From sequence record MN655998.1: a DNA stretch of 64,000 nt; one strand, given 5' to 3'. The position numbers were made by a program, and so were the translations under genes. The notes beneath the pieces are model-generated. The model worked only from the letters and a program-made list of their open reading frames with translations, did not search any database and was not told the origin of the DNA. Of the stretch, positions 181-34,488 are shown piece after piece. Source of the DNA: Escherichia phage E26. How positions within the stretch are numbered: position 1 is the first letter of the stretch; each line of letters begins with the position of its first letter.

Positions 181-654
181 CTATTTGTTAAGCCCTTTAA
201 AGCCAAATACTTTCTTTAATGCGTGTTCAGTTATGATCTTAAACTCCATGTTATACTTTTGGCATAATTTCACGGCAGCCAACCATTTTTCGGTATTTTT
301 TGTGTACGTCCATACTTCATGCATATACCGTTGCTTTGTCTTCGCGGTCATTCTTTTTGGCTTTTCCGGTGGCCTTGTCTCTTTAGCTGGTTTAACTTCC
401 CATAAATGCTCCTTGCCATCATCAAACTTAACGTAAAAATCCATAAAGTATCTGTGTCTTTTTCCGTCTGTTGATGACTCATAAGGAATTACTACGGTCT
501 CAGATCCCCATTTTGCAACTCTAGGATTGCGGTCTAGCCACTGCATGATCCATCTTTCCCAGCTTGAACGGTATGTGATTTTCCGTATATCCCCTTTATA
601 TTTTTCCTTATTCTCAGGAACATACTTGCCCTTATAAGTGTTAGATCCTCCCAT
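181..654 (-). CDS. 4: head completion protein gp4-like
   Basis: 157-aa ORF with ATG and GAGGA RBS, divergent from gene 53 as in T4; size fits T4 gp4. Confidence 0.65.
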   Translation of the reverse strand: MGGSNTYKGKYVPENKEKYKGDIRKITYRSSWERWIMQWLDRNPRVAKWGSETVVIPYESSTDGKRHRYFMDFYVKFDDGKEHLWEVKPAKETRPPEKPKRMTAKTKQRYMHEVWTYTKNTEKWLAAVKLCQKYNMEFKIITEHALKKVFGFKGLNK

Positions 655-669
655 TTTAGCACCCTTTAT

Positions 670-677
670 TATAAATA
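670..677 (+). promoter_or_regulatory. T4-type late promoter box (TATAAATA) for gene 53
   Basis: exact TATAAATA 32 nt upstream of the gp53 ATG. Confidence 0.55.
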
Positions 678-709
678 CATAATACTATTTATCAATTGAG
701 GGTGATAAA

Positions 710-1264
710 ATGCTCTTTTCTTTCTTCCCTGCCATAGAATACAACGGCAAGATGATTACTGACATTGTGCGCAATTACCGCGCATATTTCAACGCAATAA
801 TTTCTGATTATAACATACAAACATATTACATTCAAGGTAGTCCACGACCGGAACAAGTTGCATATGAAGTATACGGAAACCAGCAACTTTATTGGATCTT
901 GCTGATGCTTAATGACGTATACGATCCGTTTCATGACTGGATCACCGATCAAGAGACAGCATATGAATCAGCCGAACAACGATATGCAAATGTAGGAGGA
1001 AATCAAGTATTATACCACGTTGATATTGACGGAAACAAGTATTGGAATCTTACCGAATATCCGAAAGGATCAAGCAACTGGTATGATAAAGGGGATATTC
1101 ATCATCGTCATTTGCAGTTTCAAGGTGCATTATCGGCAGTAGACACACTGGAAGATGCGATCCTCCGTAATGAGGAACGACGCAAGATCAAGATCATAGA
1201 TCCTACACAAATTAAACAATTTATTAACGCATTCATTCGAGAAATGGAAAAGGCTGATGTGTAA
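710..1264 (+). CDS. 53: baseplate wedge protein gp53
   Basis: 184 aa; N-terminus MLFSFF and GSPRPE..LYW..DW motifs resemble T4 gp53; precedes gp5. Confidence 0.85.
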   Translation: MLFSFFPAIEYNGKMITDIVRNYRAYFNAIISDYNIQTYYIQGSPRPEQVAYEVYGNQQLYWILLMLNDVYDPFHDWITDQETAYESAEQRYANVGGNQVLYHVDIDGNKYWNLTEYPKGSSNWYDKGDIHHRHLQFQGALSAVDTLEDAILRNEERRKIKIIDPTQIKQFINAFIREMEKADV

Positions 1265-1275
1265 GGTGATTAATT

Positions 1276-3075
1276 ATGCTAATGTTTAATAACTCCGTTA
1301 AATGGTTTACCGGAATTGTAGAAAACAGGGAAGACCCATTAATGCTGGGGCGTGTTCAGGTTAGGATTCATGGTATACATCCTTCGCTATCCGCACACGG
1401 TGACATTCAAGGTCTTCCAACCGAAGATCTATTATGGATTACGCCAGTACAAGATATTACAAGCGCGGCGATCTCCGGTATAGGTCAAAGCCCTACTGGT
1501 ATTGTTGAAGGTTCAATGGTATTTGGTTTGGCTTTAGATGAACGTTATTTAAACTGCGTTATTCTGGGTACTATTGCCGGACAATATACAGAGAAACCAC
1601 TCACTACAGAAGGTTTTTGCGACCCTTCCGGTGCATATCCGCGTTATATCGGTAATGATGTTAATATTCTTGCCCGTGGCGGTATTAACCCAGAAACCGG
1701 ACAAACAACAAAACCTGATAGTGTCTATATTCGAGATGAAAACACTGGAGTTGCAGTAAATCCAGACGACGAGCCATTAGATCAAATTCCGGTTGATGAT
1801 AATCCTGATTTTACAATAGAAAAAATGCTTCGTGGCGATGAGGGATATCGTGAGAAATGGTATCTTGATTCAGAAGGATATCCGACAATAGGCATCGGGC
1901 ATTTGATCATTTATAAGAAAACCAGTGATCTGGGTATTATCAATAATGAACTTTCTAAGCTGGTAGGGCGTGAAGTTACAAACGGAAGACTTACCGCCGA
2001 AGAAGTTAGTAAAGTATTTGCCGACGATATAGAAAAGACTCGTCGTGATATGCGCAAACATCCACGAATTGCACCTGTCTATAATAAATGTAATGCCTCA
2101 CGTCGTATGGCATTAGAAAATATGGCGTTTCAAATGGGTGTTGGTGGATTGGGTAAATTTAAGAATAGTCTTGCTGCGATGTTAGCGGAAGAATGGAAAC
2201 AAGCCTATGATGGATTACGTCAATCGGTATGGGCTAACCAAACTCCAGGACGTTCAAGCCGTGTTTCTAAAATTATTTTAACTGGTAACTTAGAATCATA
2301 TGGCGTAATTGCTCCTAAGAAAGAGGAAACTGTTTCAGATGATCCGAGAGCACGTTTGAGAAATGCCCGTATTGCTGCCTATAAGACGCAGAGAGCAGAA
2401 GAAGACCCAGAAGCACCGTTTACCCCACAAGACACACGAATCATGTTTAAAGAGCCTAAGAGTTCGTATTCTGCGAGGTATCCTTATAACCATGTGTACG
2501 AGTCAGAGAGCGGTCATATTATCGAGATTGATGATACTCCTTCTCATGAGCGATATCATCGCAAACATCCTTCTGGTACATTTGAAGAAACCAGACCGGA
2601 CGGAACGAGGGTAGAAAAGATTGAAGGTGATGATTATCTGATCGTTAAACAAGGCCGGAAAGTAAACGTTAAGGGTAATTTGCAAGTTGTTGTTGAAGGT
2701 GACGCGCAAGTTTATTATATGGGTAATGTGATGCAAACCGTTGATGGTAACGTCACTGAATTTATTCGTGGCAATGTTAATCAGACCGTTGAAGGTACTG
2801 CTAACATGCATGTTGTTGGTGATGTTATCGCACAGCTTGACGCTAATTTGACGGCTAACGTCAAGGGTAATGCTGAATTAATGATCGAGGGTAACACTAC
2901 AGAGACAATTAAAGGTAACTATGATTTAACCGTTGAGGGTAATTTTAATATGACCGTCAATGGCACTAAATCAGATCAGGTTAATGGTGACTGGTCCCGT
3001 AATTGTGGTGCAAGCGTTAAAGATATTGCATCTGGTACAGTTAAAATTGATGGTAGCCGTATTGATCTTGGGTGA
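1276..3075 (+). CDS. 5: baseplate central spike / tail lysozyme gp5
   Basis: 599 aa; internal lysozyme signature (EGYREKWYLDSEGYPTIGIGHL) and C-terminal V-x-G-N beta-helix repeats. Confidence 0.9.
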   Translation: MLMFNNSVKWFTGIVENREDPLMLGRVQVRIHGIHPSLSAHGDIQGLPTEDLLWITPVQDITSAAISGIGQSPTGIVEGSMVFGLALDERYLNCVILGTIAGQYTEKPLTTEGFCDPSGAYPRYIGNDVNILARGGINPETGQTTKPDSVYIRDENTGVAVNPDDEPLDQIPVDDNPDFTIEKMLRGDEGYREKWYLDSEGYPTIGIGHLIIYKKTSDLGIINNELSKLVGREVTNGRLTAEEVSKVFADDIEKTRRDMRKHPRIAPVYNKCNASRRMALENMAFQMGVGGLGKFKNSLAAMLAEEWKQAYDGLRQSVWANQTPGRSSRVSKIILTGNLESYGVIAPKKEETVSDDPRARLRNARIAAYKTQRAEEDPEAPFTPQDTRIMFKEPKSSYSARYPYNHVYESESGHIIEIDDTPSHERYHRKHPSGTFEETRPDGTRVEKIEGDDYLIVKQGRKVNVKGNLQVVVEGDAQVYYMGNVMQTVDGNVTEFIRGNVNQTVEGTANMHVVGDVIAQLDANLTANVKGNAELMIEGNTTETIKGNYDLTVEGNFNMTVNGTKSDQVNGDWSRNCGASVKDIASGTVKIDGSRIDLG

Positions 3076-3083
3076 GGTAACTA

Positions 3084-3650
3084 ATGGTTGAAATTCTTCC
3101 GATGAGTTCAAAATTGGAGGATATCAGCGAGCGAGAAATCTTTGAGGTGGTGTTCTCTTATAAAGCAACGCCACCGGATGCAAATACCACATACACGATT
3201 AAAGAGTTTAAGATCAGCGAGTATCGCCCTAATAAGGGCGTTACCGTTGAAGAAACTAAAATATCTGGTGAGTATAGGGATAGTTTTTCGCTTGGCGCGG
3301 ATTCTCTTAAATATATAACGAAAGATCGAATTAAAAAATCTGCCGGAAGTTTTGATGATTTACCAGATCCAACTACCGCAGATCTATATTATTTTAACGC
3401 TCCTACACGTCTACAGGAGGTTTATACTTATAAAGTAACCCTAACCTATATCCAATCTGTTTCAGAGTCTTCTGGTGGTTCTGGTGAAGGAAATAGTGGT
3501 GGTTCCAATAGCCGAGAGGGTTCTGGTGAAACTAATCCTCCTCCGGTAGTAACCGAGCACACAATAGAGAAAGTTTATACTCAAACCGTTTTTGGAAATT
3601 GGGATGTGTGGGCGCAGCAACTAAGAGATTATGTACATAGGGGTGTTTAA
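3084..3650 (+). CDS. hypothetical protein in the T4 gene 5.1 position
   Basis: 188-aa ORF with RBS, between gp5 and the PAAR gene; Gly/Ser-rich linker [20 protein letters not shown]. Confidence 0.5.
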
Positions 3651-3943
3651 TGGCTGGATTATCCTACGATAAAGCTAAAACTACAGGGCACGGAAACTAC
3701 CCACCTACGGTAATTAATGCAACTCAATCTAAGGTATTTGTTGAGGGTATCCCTGTATTAGTCGAAGGAGACCCAATTACACCACACACAAAAACAACAA
3801 AGCCTTATGATACACACGGGGGAACTACGGTCGCCAGTACCCCGAAAGTATTTGTTACCGGAAAGAAAGCAATTCAAATGGCAGATCGTATTAGCTGTGG
3901 CGATACCGTCGCTATGGCATCACCGAAGGTATTCATAAAATGA
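3650..3943 (+). CDS. 5.4: PAAR-repeat spike tip protein (gp5.4-like)
   Basis: 97 aa, same length and position as T4 gp5.4; start overlaps upstream stop. Confidence 0.6.
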
Positions 3944-5844
3944 CAAAGCAAAAGATTACACAAATTCCTGATATTTTTAATGCTGCTACATTCGATGAAA
4001 TTAAAAGCGCATTAACAGACTGGATGAGAAACCAGGAAGAATTTAAAGATTTTGATTTTAATGGTGCTGGTATTAACGTATTGATGGACTTGCTCGCATA
4101 TAACACTCTGTATATTCAGCAATTCGCTAACGCCGCGCTATATGAATCTTTTATCAGAACGGCAATTAAGCGTAGTTCAGTTGTTCAAGCCGCGCAAGAT
4201 TTAGGATATTTGCCAGCAAGTAAAACTAGTGCATCGACTACAATTATGTTGCACGTAACACATCCGCGAAATCCGGCAAGTATTCGAATCCCACGAGGAA
4301 CTAAATTTATTGCAAGTGTGGATCGCCAGACGTCTTATCCGTTTGTGACTACCGAAGACGTTGTGAGCGTTTTAGGTTCAAATGGTTTATATACGCCTAT
4401 GCTTAAAGTCGCACAAGGTCGTATTGTTCGTACAGAAATGTTATTTGATCCGAAGAAACAAATTCTGATCCGCGATCCTGATATTGACCGCGCTCAGGTT
4501 AAATTGTGGGTAGACGGTGCTGAATGGAAAGACTGGACGCGAGAAAGCATTGTTAATGCAACTGGCGCTAGTAATATTTTCTATATGCGTGAAACCGTAG
4601 ACGGTCATACAGAAATCTTCTTTGGTGAGGGTGAATCAACTTTATCTGCTGCTGGCGGTGCACTGGAAGCAAATTATATTGGTGGACTTAAGCCGTCAAC
4701 TGGCGCTAATATTGTTATCGAATATATCAGCACTAAAGGCGCGGAAGCAAACGGTTCAGTTAATTTCACATACGCGGATACCCTTGCATCTATCTCTATT
4801 GTTAAAATTATTGAGAATCCGACAAATGATCGTGATTATGTCGGTGCGGATGGTGGTGGTGATCCTGAATCAATCGAACGTATCCGTGAACTTGCTCCGG
4901 TAATGCGTGAATCTCAGCGTCGTTGTGTAACTGCTTCCGACTATGAGGCTTTTGTGTCTAGCCGTTTTGGTAGTATTGTTCAGGCGGTACAATGTTTCAC
5001 CGACCGAGAAAAACCGGGTTATGCTTTTGTTGCTGTTAAGCCTAAATCTGGCTTGCGCTTGACAACCGTTCAAAAAGAAGATATGCGGGATTATCTGGCA
5101 AAATATAACCTTGCCCCTATCACGCCGAGCATCATTGACCCTAACTATCTGTATATTAAACAGAATATTAAAGTTTCCTATTCAATCAACGACTTGTCAG
5201 AATCAGAGCAGTGGTTGCGCGGTGCGGTTATTGATCAGATTGATGCATATTATACCGACGAAGTGGAAATTTTTAACCAGACCTTTAGTAAGTCTAAAAT
5301 GCTTGCGCGTATTGACAAAGCTGATGTATCTGTGATAGGTTCTAGTGCAGAAATCGAGATGGTGCGAGAGATCGACAACTTCTATAAAGCACCGATGGCT
5401 GGAATCAAGTTTTTAAACCAGTATAAGAGCGGAATCAAGTCTAGTTCATTCAACTTCGAAAAGGACGACAAGCAATATCCGATCCATTATGTAAGTACAG
5501 AAATGAACAAAGAATCCGGTTTAGCTAAATTGCTGGTTGGACCTTTCCCTGTTGATTCTACAATCGCTTTACCGCACTATTCCGGCACTGATTTTGATAA
5601 AGAGGTTATCGACGGTGCGGACCTATACTTTGAGGTTGGAGAGGTTAAGCATTATGACGACCTTATTTCATGGGATCTGGGTAAACTGAATATCAATAGC
5701 GATCGCTTTACTGGTTCATATATTGAGTTGACAGCTAAACCGATTGCTGATAACATCTTTACTAAAGACGGTTCTTTGATCGTGTTTGAAAACGATCTCC
5801 GTCCTCAGTACACAACTATTAGTCTGGAGGCAATTGCTCAATGA
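3940..5844 (+). CDS. 6: baseplate wedge protein gp6
   Basis: 634 aa; strongly T4 gp6-like ([33 protein letters not shown]). Confidence 0.9.
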
Positions 5845-8800
5845 TTAAAGCGCCTAGTGTAACTAGCTTGACAATAGAAAAATTGTCTGCTAATCAGGCG
5901 TATATCACATGGGATGACGTAGGCGAAAACTTCTTTTATTTTGTGGAGTTAGCCGAAACCAGAACACGAGACGGGGAGATCATCCCCGTCGATGAGTTAA
6001 GCTGGGTAAACCTGGGATATACTGCCGAACAAAACTGGTTTGAGGATAAAAACCTTTTTCCAGAATATTATTACAAGTTTCGTGTAGCAGTAGCCGCAGA
6101 AGGATTTGAACAAAGTAAATGGGTTGAAACAGAAGAGTTTCAGACATTTAAAACAAACGCATATAATTTTTCTATGATGCGAGAGTTCAACCTTGCAAAT
6201 GAGTTTATAAAGGAAAAATTTACATACGATAATCGAGAGTATGTCAAGTTTAATACTGACCTGATTCAAGCATCATTGATGAAGGAAGATTTTGTCTTTA
6301 GTCCTGAATATGCAAACATGACAAATATCTCAAACTACATTGTAGTTGATGAGAACTTTCATGAAATACAGGATCACATAGAAAAAGTTTGTATTGATAT
6401 AAACCGCACTATGTTAGCGGAAATGAACGGTGTTTTGTACCTTTTCGAACGGTTCCAGCCGATCGTGAAAGTGTCAAATGATAAAGGTCAATCATGGAAA
6501 GCATACAAGGCTTTTAATGACCGTGTAGGCAATCCGGTTTCCCGTACATGCGTTTATCAGTCTAAAACAACTACTTACGTTTTAGGTTATGACCGAATCT
6601 TTTACGGACGACAAGCGAGCGATACTCGATGGAGCGCGGACGATGTTCGATTTAGTGATGATACGATCACTTTTGCAAAGGTTGGTGACGAGAACGATTT
6701 AGGGTTTGATGTTGAGGTATTTGGCGTATTTTCCCGATTAACAGGCGACACCACAAAATACGCCGAAGCGATGGCGTGTAGTGACGATTATTTGTGGGTT
6801 GGTGCTAAGGATGTTATTCGCAGGATTCGCCTTAAGAATACTCCGGTCGATACCGTACAGGGTTCGCCTACGTTTGGAGAAAAAATATTCGATCCTGATG
6901 TTATCAGAGTAACAGGAAATGATAAAGCTGTCATTCAGAAAATGGATGTGATCGACGGTAAATTGCTTGTATTTGTTACGGGTGAAGTTAAACAGCGTTA
7001 TCAAGATCCAACTAAACCAGAAAACGTTGTTCCGTCAGATGATGCGGGTGTATACTTAATAGGGAGTGATGGTCTGTCTTTTCAGAGAGTATTTGGCAAC
7101 ACTCCGCAGGAAAGGGAATATATTCAGCATGGGTTCAGTAATATGTCAACCAATGGTGATGAGGTGTTCATAAGCCATTATAATCATCACTTCGAAAGCA
7201 TTTTACCTGATCCAGAAACTGCCGCGAAATATGAATTAGGCGAAGCTGTGAAATATTCTCAGGAGCCAACTTATCTAACTGATAAGAAAATACATCAAAC
7301 TACTTTCAGAGCAAGTTATGATGATTTGCGTATTTGGGAGTTAGGACCGCAAGCGTATTATAATGAGGCTGATTATACATGGATGCGTCGAAACGGTGTC
7401 CGTGTGTGGATCACAAATGATAATCGCCCGTTGGTTGTTTATCCAGAGGTTATCTATACTCAAGAAGTTGATACGTCCGGCATTCTTGATCAAAATAGGG
7501 TCAACCGAGAAGTTTATGATAAAGGGACCGTGACCTGTTATCTTAACAATGTTAAATTTGAAGGATTCAAACAATATGCATCCGGTGTAATGTTCCATAA
7601 AAACACGGGAGAGATCATAGGATTCTATCAATTTAACTATCGCGTTCGTGATCAGGTTGGTGTATATTGGAAACCTACAAATGTAGCATTTGTTGCTGAA
7701 TTGCAAAATCAGGTTCGAGAGGTTCCCTGGGTTCCGGTTCACTACGATCGAGAGCAAGATCCAGATTTGCGACCTTTACTGAATAAGATGACACCTGATA
7801 GCTTTTTACTTGAGAACGAAAATTTCAGAAAATTCTCTGAATATTATCTGCAATTCTTAAGTGATGGTTCAGGAACATATTATAATAAACTAAAAAATCT
7901 GATTAAAAACAAATATCCACGCGAGCAAGATGCATATGAGTATCTTTGGTCAGAGATGAACAAACGAAACATCTATGCAGATAAAAACAAGCGAGATGCG
8001 GTAGTAAGATTCTTTGAATCCCGCAAATCAGATTTTTATTCCACTAAGGGCGTGGAGGCTTCTTATAAGTTCTTGTTTAAGTTACTTTATAATGAAGATG
8101 TGGAAATTGAGGTTGAATCACAAGCCGGACTAGAGTATGATATTGTTGTTAGTTCAACGAACATTGACGAGGATATCGTAGGTCGCACGATTTATACTCC
8201 AACCGGACGGGCTAACGTGACTTATCTTGAAAGGGAATATGAAGGTGGTCGCCTACGCTGGCGAGTAACCATTCATAACCTGATCGGGCGGTTCGAAGAA
8301 GGTCAAGTGATCAAATCAGAGAAAACAGCGTTTGAAGGGATGATCCTTGTTGGTGTACGTGGTAAAGAGTTGTTGAGTAGTTCAATCGACTATATCAACC
8401 GCTCACGAAGCCAATACACCATGAAGATTAAAAGTGCATTGCCAGTTTCTCGCTATGCAAATGATGTAATGCGATTCGTTCATCCTGTCGGCTTTGGGTT
8501 TATCGGTGTTACCCTGCTTACGATGTTCATTAACAGCGGGTTAAGCATGAAACACACAGAGACGATAATTCAATCTCTAAAAAATTATAAGTTTGACAGC
8601 GGATTGCCTAGCGTGTATCCTGATCGGGTGGCAGACCTTGACGTTGACGGAAACATTAAGAAAGACCCGCTTACCGGAAAAGCATTATATTTGACTTCAC
8701 CTTTAATTGGTGAAGAATTTCCGGTTCCCCCTGAATATGATCAGGAGAACAGCGAATTGTTCCACGGACTTAAAGCAAGCGAACGAAGATTTGCAATGAG

Positions 8801-31926: not shown

Positions 31927-32007
31927 TATAAGCCATTCCTGAAAACTCCTGTCGGGTGCAATGCCCGACTTATCATAAACCTTATGACAGTGTAAAGTGT
32001 TAATTCC

Positions 32008-32039
32008 AAAGGGAAGACTCGAAAGGGTCTTCCCTTTTT
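32008..32039 (+). terminator. rho-independent terminator after gene 23
   Basis: GGGAAGAC / GTCTTCCC 8-bp stem followed by TTTTT. Confidence 0.7.
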
Positions 32040-32239
32040 GCGTATTATATCCCGTTATAAATAAGGTTGCAAGCCTATATTCTATTGTGAGCGAAAATAG
32101 ATACACACAACAAAGACAGGAAGATGCAGAACATCGGTGGGTTGCTAGCCTAAATCCGGTGGCTATGATATGTGATTTCTTTTGATGCTGGATTTATTAA
32201 AACACAACAAACAATTCCACCAATTTTCGTAGTAACTGC

Positions 32240-32413
32240 ATGGCAAAGGGACCAATGAATGAAATGAGCGTTCATGTTGATATTGGGTCGGATAGATTTG
32301 GTAGATATACAGATCTGGTGTATGCCGACCTTGTTATGACATTCCAGTGTGACGCTAGCGGTATTTTTGGTTTTGGTACGCTGTTCCCTGAATTAACCCA
32401 AAATTCTCCATAA
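32240..32413 (+). CDS. hypothetical small protein (57 aa from 32240; 52 aa from ATG 32255)
   Basis: below ORF-track cutoff; its TAA lies inside the AAGGAGG RBS of the next ORF; a TTGCTA-16-TATGAT promoter-like site sits at about 32142..32169. Confidence 0.35.
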   Translation: MAKGPMNEMSVHVDIGSDRFGRYTDLVYADLVMTFQCDASGIFGFGTLFPELTQNSP

Positions 32414-32423
32414 GGAGGAATGC

Positions 32424-32576
32424 ATGAGTAAGAAAGAAAACAGCTATGTTATGACTCGTAAGGAATACAACAAATTGATGTTAGCATTAGCTTATGCAAT
32501 TATTCGTTCTGATCATGCAATTAATCTGGTAAACAAAGTTAACCGTAGCGTTGATAATGTTTCTAGGAAGAAGTAA
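32424..32576 (+). CDS. hypothetical small protein (50 aa)
   Basis: ATG 6 nt after AAGGAGG; followed directly by a terminator hairpin. Confidence 0.45.
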   Translation: MSKKENSYVMTRKEYNKLMLALAYAIIRSDHAINLVNKVNRSVDNVSRKK

Positions 32577-32585
32577 GTTTATTTT

Positions 32586-32607
32586 GGAATCCTTCGGATT
32601 CCTTTTT
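32586..32607 (+). terminator. rho-independent terminator (UUCG tetraloop)
   Basis: GGAATCC-TTCG-GGATTCC followed by TTTTT. Confidence 0.7.
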
Positions 32608-32614
32608 CTTTTTG

Positions 32615-32622
32615 TATAAATA
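32615..32622 (+). promoter_or_regulatory. T4-type late promoter box (TATAAATA) for gene 24
   Basis: exact TATAAATA 36 nt upstream of the gp24 ATG. Confidence 0.6.
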
Positions 32623-32658
32623 TGATATATCCATTAAGCAAATACAGGATTCATAAAC

Positions 32659-33900: not shown

Positions 33901-34488
33901 CTAAATATCTAACCAAGACAAGTCAGATCCGCCCAAGATTTTTTCGACGGCGGATCTATTTTCTTGATGATATAAGTTAAAACATGGTATCCCATGTCTA
34001 CGGGCAACATAAACAGCAATTCTAGTTCCTCCCGAAACGATTCCATTAACTTCTTTCGCCCAGAATATCACACAATCTACAGGATCATCAAGTGTCTCAC
34101 CTAAGACTTGAGCAACATTTCTAGAAAACAGATTTTGCATGTATAACGGTATAGAACGAGGATTATCATAAACGTGTTCTAATTCATCCATCGCCAGATT
34201 TTTTTGTTCTAAGGTTTGCCATGCAATCACATCATGACCGTTATGCTTGTGGTCATAAAACTTCCAATTTGGAATGAAAATTTTTCTATAATCTGGATCG
34301 TAATACTTCATGAAAGCATTGTCCATACCGTAAGCCCCTCCAGAATGCGCTACAACGCGATTTTCTGACAATACCCTCCCAATGGTACTAGCCATTATCA
34401 AAATGTCGCTAGGCGCTTTTCTAGAGCCTATTAAAGCACATCTACGAAGTGGTTTTACTCCAAATAGATCTTGTAACTGGTCAAACAT
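33901..34488 (-). CDS. DprA/Smf-like (SLOG-type Rossmann fold) protein
   Basis: 195 aa; ALIGSRKAP...VVAHSGGAYGMDNAF fits the GSR / SGxAxGxD pattern of DprA-type domains; GGAGG RBS. Confidence 0.45.
   Translation of the reverse strand: MFDQLQDLFGVKPLRRCALIGSRKAPSDILIMASTIGRVLSENRVVAHSGGAYGMDNAFMKYYDPDYRKIFIPNWKFYDHKHNGHDVIAWQTLEQKNLAMDELEHVYDNPRSIPLYMQNLFSRNVAQVLGETLDDPVDCVIFWAKEVNGIVSGGTRIAVYVARRHGIPCFNLYHQENRSAVEKILGGSDLSWLDI
33925..33965 (+). terminator. terminator-like hairpin for gene 24, lying inside the 3' end of the convergent gene
   Basis: AGATCCGCC / GGCGGATCT 9-bp stem followed by ATTTTCTT. Confidence 0.45.

Follow-up and report, generated by a model that had tools for sequence, protein, structure and literature searches.

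The gap between the major capsid gene 23 and the vertex gene 24 (g23 and g24) of RB49-like phages raises the question of whether the small open reading frames that lie in it are genes, and if so, what keeps them there. In the window, a stretch of 64,000 nucleotides of DNA from Escherichia phage E26 (MN655998.1), the last position of g23 is 31926 and the first of g24 is 32659, giving a g23-g24 gap of 732 bp. The original prediction placed two small ORFs, one of 52-57 aa and one of 50 aa, in a gap of about 730 bp, and all of the features that it described were found in the sequence at their positions:

32240-32413, plus strand: ORF1, a chimeric remnant ORF, 57 aa from the first ATG or 52 aa from the ATG at 32255
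32412-32418, plus strand: AAGGAGG, the Shine-Dalgarno (SD) sequence of ORF2, read directly in the sequence; it overlaps the stop codon that ORF1 shares with its parent gene, geneC (see below)
32424-32576, plus strand: ORF2, a 50-aa late gene (RB49p162 / phrog_16600)

The arrangement of the two ORFs is very tight. The TAA of ORF1 (32411-32413) lies within TAAGGAGG and runs into the SD at 32412-32418, as had been predicted, and the spacing from AAGGAGG to the ATG of ORF2 is 5 nt. The interpretation of the two frames as small genes held for one of them: ORF2 is a genuine small gene, but ORF1 is not a conserved gene. We put the probability at about 0.85 that the g23-g24 gap is the scar of a deleted late operon, with ORF1 a decaying remnant and ORF2 the survivor under selection.

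The gap and its reading frames

The window belongs to Krischvirus, the RB49-like Straboviridae. The gap sequence has matches of 95-99.9% identity in 57 phage records, every one of which is Krischvirus, and the best match is phage ELT4 (99.9% identical). Literature searches found no work on the g23-g24 slot in RB49-like phages. In T4 the same slot holds segD, a GIY-YIG homing endonuclease, as had been noted earlier, so the slot tolerates variable cargo. However, the 223-aa segD is on the opposite (minus) strand and is unrelated in sequence to the ORFs of the window, neither of which has a nuclease domain.

The two ORFs differ in how readily chance could produce them. When the gap was simulated 5000 times with a first-order Markov model, 28.5% of the simulated gaps had at least one plus-strand ATG-initiated ORF of at least 50 aa and 3.3% had two such ORFs, and one ORF of at least 50 aa with a strong SD was found in 0.6%. 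ORF1 alone is therefore within chance expectation, while ORF2 together with its SD exceeds it. Pfam had zero matches for ORF1 or ORF2. A scan of the gap against Rfam gave only a sub-threshold match to fstAT (E = 0.22), and with 22 bits, far under the gathering score of 72, this match was rejected as noise.

Neither ORF is new, as both are annotated in many GenBank records as hypothetical proteins and both have PHROG families, neither of which carries a functional annotation. ORF2 is the same gene as ORF162 of RB49 (RB49p162, NP_891733.1), which has 50 aa, lies directly upstream of g24, and is 98% identical, with a single residue that differs (E17K). To this extent the finding is largely ordinary, since ORF1 is a decaying leftover and ORF2 is an already annotated late gene.

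Origin of the gap from a late operon

A longer version of the locus is present in a minority of Krischvirus. Full-length copies of two genes, here called geneB and geneC, are found in only six of about 58 Krischvirus records. The carriers of the intact cassette are G2248, Brandy, SSG23, SFHK24, UPWr_E1, and JK32, along with the metagenomic contigs L032-L034. In the first five phages the g23-g24 version is about 3.4 kb long and consists of geneA (102 aa), geneB (about 570 aa), geneC (about 309 aa), and ORF2. The JK32 cassette includes an additional gene for a 614-aa coiled-coil protein; its geneC homologue (JK32_00161) has 307 aa and the geneB-type neighbour of this gene has 572 aa. The same four-gene layout is found in metagenomic relatives whose ORF2 forms a separate cluster at the 50%-identity level.

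Intact cassettes have exactly one late-promoter motif before geneA and one before g24, so they are single late operons that end at the terminator after ORF2. The terminators and late-promoter motifs of the window are as follows:

32008-32040 (hairpin 32008-32037), plus strand: intrinsic terminator of g23, with a 13-bp stem, a GAAA loop, and a U-run
32056-32063, plus strand: exact late-promoter motif TATAAATA, the putative promoter of the ancestral geneA-geneB-geneC-ORF2 operon
32586-32612 (hairpin 32586-32602 plus U-run), plus strand: intrinsic terminator closing the operon, with a 7-bp stem GGAAUCC/GGAUUCC
32615-32622, plus strand: late-promoter motif TATAAATA of g24, unchanged in five divergent relatives

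The T4 late-promoter consensus is TATAAATA (PMC1524935), and its presence at 32615-32622 confirms the gene 24 late promoter that had been predicted. The hairpin of the g23 terminator folds with -20.9 kcal/mol (z = -5.0). This terminator is kept in all relatives compared, and the records of GEC-3S, Makalu, and G2248 list it as such. The core of the 32056 promoter, ATAAATA, is retained in 27 of 27 genomes. Its conservation was dropped as a signal of selection, since an estimate based on the local substitution density shows that seven invariant columns would arise by chance about one time in three.

The gap in the window is the cassette operon after two deletions flanked by microhomology. Mapping of the gap onto an intact cassette by blastn gave three collinear blocks, listed here with the junctions and the geneB fragment:

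31927-32109, plus strand: block A, with the g23 terminator, the promoter, and the ribosome-binding site (RBS) of geneA
32088-32109, plus strand: remnant of the geneA RBS and start, and deletion junction 1, from alignment to Brandy, G2248, and SSG23
32110-32272, plus strand: block B, an internal piece of geneB
32110-32253, plus strand: segment B, an internal geneB fragment that is non-coding here, 88% identical to Brandy L009 3652-3812 (blastn)
32254-32272, plus strand: deletion junction 2, an imperfect 19-nt geneB/geneC repeat, AATGA..AAAT.AGCGTT, with the crossover at AGCGTT
32254-32658, plus strand: block C, with the last 48 or so codons of geneC, ORF2, the terminator, and the g24 promoter

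At the left of the scar, the start codon of geneA has changed from ATG to ATA (32101-32103), and ATA is found in all short-gap genomes. Junction 1 has the microhomology AAAGAC, which is common to both flanks. Junction 2 was defined by base-level comparison with both Brandy flanks, and its repeat holds the third in-frame ATG of ORF1, at 32264. The ATGs of ORF1 at 32240 and 32255 are supplied by segment B, in a frame other than that of geneB itself, and a 28-aa ORF in segment B (32172-32258) matches JK32_00160 internally. In 23 of 23 short-gap genomes junction 2 is the same, as is the left edge of junction 1. In some sublineages segment B has been shortened further by deletions between direct repeats, either ACACAACAAA (-96 nt) or CGGTGG (-22 nt).

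These features give a history of the locus. The ancestral order was g23 terminator, late promoter, geneA, geneB, geneC, ORF2, terminator, late promoter, and g24, an arrangement that persists in the minority of Krischvirus and in the divergent metagenomic relatives. Two deletions, one of about 1.5 kb and one of about 1.2 kb and each bounded by short imperfect repeats, took out geneA, most of geneB, and most of geneC. A 1-nt change put the out-of-frame ATGs of the geneB piece in frame with the geneC tail, creating ORF1, and in the lineage of the window a second 1-nt change, in an A/T run, reopened ORF1 to the old geneC stop. With this history the locus provides a clean, dated case of T4-type phages shedding accessory late genes, in which microhomology-mediated deletions are followed by stepwise erosion of the scar.

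The lost cassette may have encoded fibre-like proteins. The geneB product is glycine-rich with collagen-like stretches and has weak PHROG matches to tail-fibre families, and the geneC product has an alanine-zipper-like helix and weak tail-fibre PHROG matches as well. The architecture predicted for geneC is a conserved N-terminal region, a helix of about 90 residues forming a coiled-coil stalk, and a C-terminal beta-sandwich head. In the AF2 model (pLDDT 74 overall and 80-93 in the head) the helix extends from residue 27 to 117 and the beta-sandwich from about 136 to 290. Sequence searches of the PDB with geneB and geneC gave no match, and a PDB fold search with the geneC model gave none that was significant (best E = 8e-3). 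In BFVD the model had weak fold matches (E about 3e-3) to receptor-binding sandwich domains, coiled-coil fibres, and adenovirus fibre knobs. Stronger BFVD matches were obtained with JK32's own geneC and with an uncharacterised 159-aa protein of Edwardsiella phage PEi21 (E = 2.7e-6). Because the fold matches of geneC are weak and none is significant in the PDB, the term fibre-like stays a suggestion. What is newly recognised is an uncharacterised late operon, possibly fibre-like and variably present, that a minority of Krischvirus have between g23 and g24; it may influence virion surface properties or host interaction.

Decay of ORF1

ORF1 is the 3' stump of a gene of about 309 aa, which a deletion has joined to part of a gene of about 570 aa that is out of frame. 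The body of ORF1 (32273-32413) consists of the last 48 or so codons of geneC, as seen from its homology to the C-terminus of JK32_00161 and G2248_00163. ORF1 matches phrog_20809, and phrog_20809 also matches residues 261-302 of geneC. A homology search with ORF1 as the query found only other short remnant ORFs and no parent genes; the parents were found through tblastn on JK32 and with geneC as the query. By tblastn ORF1 is 60-95% identical across Krischvirus records, with the match often in pieces, and in JK32 the match falls on the C-terminal end of the 307-aa protein.

Most of the parent gene is missing from ORF1. The intact geneC (G2248_00163 / JK32_00161 / SSG23 XHY53008) ends with the same TAA in the same AAGGAGG, but ORF1 lacks the conserved N-terminus, the long helix, and nearly all of the beta-sandwich, so the full-length architecture is absent from it. 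ORF1 spans only the equivalent of about residues 262-309, which in the geneC model is roughly the last strand and the tail. If ORF1 is translated, its product would be only this last strand and tail of a multi-stranded beta-sandwich.

The reading frame of ORF1 is not maintained among close relatives. A 1-nt difference just past junction 2 (ATGGTTGAT to ATGTTGAT) joins the ATGs to the geneC tail. One frame-breaking variant is an A/T run: intact cassettes have GGTAATTTTGG at this point, most short-gap phages have GGTAATTTTTGG, and the window and ELT4 have GGTATTTTTGG. The frame is also broken in the ORF1 region by a polymorphism in a G-run, by a 4-nt insertion in RB49, by a 2-nt insertion in G37-3, and by insertions of 1 nt in kaaroe, PTE-Eco09, and LF73P4. 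In 011D4 and phiS the remnant has been made shorter by in-frame deletions, of 12 and 15 nt, that leave the frame intact. The short-gap genomes show three states of ORF1:

5 of 23 genomes: homologous frame open to the TAAGGAGG stop
4 of 23 genomes: a 46-aa ORF, mostly in another frame
14 of 23 genomes: no ATG-initiated ORF ending at the SD

Of the 23 near-identical genomes with a short gap, 18 thus have the frame broken or changed. The reading frame is not conserved among relatives with the same nucleotide sequence, and the prediction of a conserved gene could not be upheld for ORF1.

The substitution pattern also shows decay. ORF1 columns are 14.7% substituted and have 10 distinct indel runs, nine of which are not multiples of three, while ORF2 columns are 2.6% substituted (Fisher P = 1e-4 for substitutions and 2e-3 for indels). 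Eleven tail residues are invariant among 17 full-length geneC clusters (51-98% identity), and ORF1 keeps eight of them; the replaced residues are P278L, R289C, and P306Q. For the geneC tail, dN/dS is 0.5-0.6 when the remnant is compared with Brandy and 0.22-0.30 when intact genes are compared with each other. ORF1 is a fragment of a pseudogene, neutral and decaying, and it is by chance that its frame is open in this lineage.

These data bear on whether ORF1 might be a new functional micro-protein, recruited from the geneC tail after the deletion. Several records list ORF1 as a CDS, there is a separate PHROG family for it, and the tail motif DLVMTFQ..FGFG..LFP is well conserved in nucleotides. 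However, a recruited protein is hard to reconcile with an unconserved frame that has nine frame-breaking indel variants, with a dN/dS that rises above that of the intact genes, and with the loss of invariant residues. The fragment would also amount to about one strand and a tail taken from a multi-strand sandwich, and an ORF of such size occurs by chance in 29% of simulations. We regard a recruited micro-protein as extremely unlikely, and ORF1 is treated below as a decaying remnant.

The annotation of the remnant differs from genome to genome. The ORF1 equivalents ELT4_211, EpJSE_00166, phi1 ORF161.1, and BN201_0164 (phrog_20809) are the same remnant at the same locus, but the annotated equivalents have lengths of 42, 45, 50, 52, and 62 aa, and their starts, stops, and frames differ:

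42 aa: Makalu_001, PHB13
45 aa: GEC-3S, Phi1, FL04, ELT3, MIZ2
50 aa: Makalu_003, Skers
52 aa: ELT4, JSE
62 aa: FL15
unannotated: RB49, MIZ4, G37-3, phiS, kaaroe, kvi, 011D4

From these differences it follows that the phrog_20809 "family" is a set of pseudogene reading frames. Hypothetical proteins of the ORF1 type and phrog_20809 should be flagged as a pseudogene remnant and not counted as a protein family. Among T4-type genomes, T4 itself offers a precedent for listing gene fragments as ORFs: its alt.-1 and alt.-2 are small ORFs that the T4 record calls leftovers of a partial alt duplicate, interrupted by a stop codon. These fragments come from a duplication at another locus, whereas ORF1 comes from a deletion.

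As a separate observation, a compensating change of 1 nt has opened ORF1 again in ELT4 and the window, and this could also signal selection, and not chance, for an upstream ORF that ends in the SD.

The tight junction between the ORFs was inherited from the intact operon. The original prediction described the two ORFs as coupled. In a functional, translationally coupled pair, ribosomes terminating on ORF1 would unmask or re-use the AAGGAGG, and ORF1 would serve as a leader ORF whether or not its peptide had a function. Several features fit such a pair. The ORF1 stop lies inside the SD, 10 nt before the ATG of ORF2, and the compensating indel reopened the frame in the window and ELT4. A small hairpin (-6.8 kcal/mol) pairs UUCUCC in the last codons of ORF1 with GGAGGA, and a C-to-U change in G2248 preserves this pairing as G-U. 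The stop-in-SD geometry is also found at the geneC-ORF2 junction of intact cassettes, and it is from this junction that the window has it; the upstream ORF has not been maintained everywhere that ORF2 has. ORF2 is intact in all short-gap genomes, including the 14 that have no ATG-initiated ORF ending at the SD and the four in which such an ORF is in another frame. The starts of ORF1 have a weak SD or none, while the near-consensus SD of ORF2 is at optimal spacing and permits independent initiation. In JK32 the gene ahead of ORF2 is another one, and a 29-nt spacer lies between them. The SD-masking hairpin was not significant against shuffles (z = -1.75) and was set aside as evidence of coupling. 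Genomes without the upstream ORF still have ORF2 and its strong SD, so coupling cannot be a requirement, and a functional coupled pair is a decidedly unlikely explanation of the locus.

Selection on ORF2

ORF2 is a real, already annotated 50-aa late gene under purifying selection. It is open at 50 aa in 27 of 27 genomes with zero indels and is intact in all 58 phage records, with tblastn identities of 96-100% in nearly every Krischvirus record and 58% in JK32. Its match to phrog_16600 (E = 2.1e-37) aligns residues 1-50 with positions 1-50 of the 50 in the profile. Six of the 11 differences between the window and G2248 are synonymous (dN/dS 0.18, P = 0.01). In a codon-aligned comparison with JK32, the synonymous sites are saturated (pS 0.96, pN 0.25, P = 7e-7). 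The SD AAGGAGG is invariant in the 26 genomes other than JK32, intact cassettes included. With a conserved frame, no indels, and purifying selection, ORF2 stands as the genuine gene that had been predicted.

After the loss of the cassette, the constraint on ORF2 is seen mainly in the lack of indels. The ORF2 substitutions among the short-gap genomes are four in number and nonsynonymous without exception, which is too few to inform (P = 0.43), and the stretch from ORF2 into g24 is low in diversity overall; for these reasons the indels carry most of the weight. ORF2 has 0 indels in 153 columns, compared to 27 in the other 580 columns of the gap (P = 0.003) and 4 in the 86 columns directly downstream (P = 0.016). 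The four nonsynonymous changes with no synonymous ones, and the equally low number of substitutions in the adjacent non-coding DNA and the 5' end of g24, are what might be seen if the entire gap including ORF2 were decaying junk, with ORF2 surviving through a recent deletion or by hitch-hiking with the g24 promoter. Such a history does not account for the two indel contrasts, for the strong purifying selection on ORF2 in divergent lineages, or for its intact state in all of the phage records, and homologues much more distant than the isolates keep the length and position of ORF2. It is very unlikely that ORF2 is junk, and the evidence points to a gene kept by selection.

The ORF2 family is narrow. 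It comprises seven clusters at 90% identity and four representatives at the 50% level, all of 48-50 aa, with the core Y-x-[LIM]-T-[RK]-K-x-Y-x-x-L-x-L-A-x-x-Y-x-I-[IM]-[RK]-S. A scan of IMG/VR for ORF2 gave two additional loci only, and an exhaustive profile search gave four further small representatives, none with a functional annotation. Wherever the context is readable, in isolates and in the contigs with P0035 and P0036, no other gene lies between ORF2 and the terminator and late promoter that precede g24.

The ORF2 product is a small basic protein of 5.8 kDa with a pI of 10.2. Its AF2 model is a single helix (residues 12-49, pLDDT 85), which is predicted to be amphipathic with hydrophobic residues at heptad-like a/d/e positions. 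With low confidence, ORF2 may be a small oligomerising (coiled-coil) late protein that takes part in virion morphogenesis independently of geneA, geneB, and geneC. A broader proposal has two parts that would both have to hold: that ORF2 is an unrecognised small coiled-coil head component or assembly factor, made late and kept after its partners were lost, and that in a few lineages including the window the reopened geneC stump tunes ORF2 translation through the SD-masking hairpin. This combination is unlikely.

ORF2 is the sole cassette gene kept by selection. Judging from the sequence motif, the 32056 promoter now probably drives a transcript in which ORF2 is the only intact gene. ORF2 would most likely be transcribed late from this promoter through a leader of about 360 nt of gene debris, the transcript would end at 32586-32612, and translation would begin from the gene's own AAGGAGG.

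The terminator after ORF2 folds with -9.2 kcal/mol (z = -2.9). It had been described as a UUCG-loop terminator, and the terminator itself, with its stem and U-run, is real; the loop is different. The window reads CUUCGG at this point, and because of the symmetrical stem the minimum-energy fold has a UUC triloop and not a UUCG loop closed by C-G. The canonical tetraloop, GGGAAUCC-UUCG-GGAUUCCC, is found in the G2248 terminator. JK32, L031, and L032 have a hairpin at the same place after ORF2, with different stem sequences.

The late operon between genes 23 and 24

A late operon lies between g23 and g24 in six of about 58 Krischvirus records and in divergent metagenomic relatives.

Late operon between g23 and g24 in relatives
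3202-6337 (L010): G2248
2159-5316 (L009): Brandy
1657-4816 (L027): SSG23
3398-8448 (L008): JK32
552-3653 (L032): metagenomic relative

The operon contains three cassette genes, of which the window retains remnants, and ORF2, the 50-amino-acid gene that the window has kept. GeneA encodes 102 amino acids and belongs with phrog_16217. GeneB encodes a glycine-rich, collagen-like protein of about 570 amino acids with weak matches to tail-fibre PHROGs, and geneC a protein of about 309 amino acids with a helix of about 90 residues and a beta-sandwich head. The operon may produce virion fibres.

JK32 has an additional gene in the interval between geneC and ORF2 (JK32_00162, L008 6422-8266), encoding a 614-amino-acid coiled-coil protein annotated as tropomyosin-like. 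Its first 60 or so residues are similar to the N-terminus of geneC, and this resemblance suggests a geneC paralogue, in which the attachment module would be common to both proteins and the distal region would differ. In Brandy, geneB (L009 2475-4204) is annotated as two overlapping ORFs of 250 and 327 amino acids, while in G2248, SSG23, and JK32 it is a single gene of about 570 amino acids. Brandy geneB may be frameshifted, or the split annotation may reflect a sequencing error. If the frameshift is real, the cassette could be entering decay in Brandy as well.

The ORF1 frame and phrog_20809

The family matched by ORF1, phrog_20809, has a profile of 45 positions and appears to have been built from remnant frames, namely window 32240-32413 (ORF1 itself) and its equivalents in relatives. 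Full-length geneC matches the profile at residues 261-302, so phrog_20809 represents the C-terminal piece of a longer protein family and is not a family of small proteins.

RNA structures around ORF2

Two hairpins flank ORF2.

Hairpins in the window
32404-32419: small hairpin, UUCUCC-AUAA-GGAGGA, -6.8 kcal/mol, in which the Shine-Dalgarno sequence of ORF2 pairs with the final codons of ORF1/geneC
32586-32602: terminator hairpin 3' of ORF2

A C-to-U change in G2248 keeps the pairing of the small hairpin as G-U, and compared with shuffled sequences this hairpin is not significant (z = -1.75). The terminator has equivalents in G2248 (L010, about 6347-6365), L008, L031, and L032. Its position is constant, while its stem sequence varies among relatives (GGAAUCC, GGGAAUCC, GGGGAAUCC, and GGGGAGAUCC). 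Compared with G2248, the window terminator has lost one G, and the loop, C(UUCG)G in G2248, is thereby reduced from a tetraloop to a triloop. In the terminator and promoter region (32566-32648, + strand) Rfam gives a match to the fstAT antitoxin sRNA that stays below threshold, with 22.3 bits where the gathering score is 72 (E = 0.22), and this match was judged to be noise.

Gene calls around the gap

Two further ORFs of the window are listed here.

Other ORFs in the window
31997-32185, + strand: GTG-initiated ORF of 62 amino acids, running across the g23 terminator and the late promoter and into the geneB remnant
33901-34488, - strand: gene of 195 amino acids, convergent with g24; the RB49 and GEC-3S annotations name its product a DprA-like DNA recombination-mediator protein

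The 62-amino-acid ORF has a CDS annotation in phage FL15; profile searches with it gave only noise-level matches, and it is almost certainly spurious. In the SSG23 record g24 (L027 4797-6143) is labelled "major head protein". Its start is placed 105 nt further upstream and is likely mis-called: the extended gene runs over the last part of ORF2 as well as the terminator and the late promoter. In T4 the place that corresponds to the 195-amino-acid gene, after gene 24, is occupied by rnlB.
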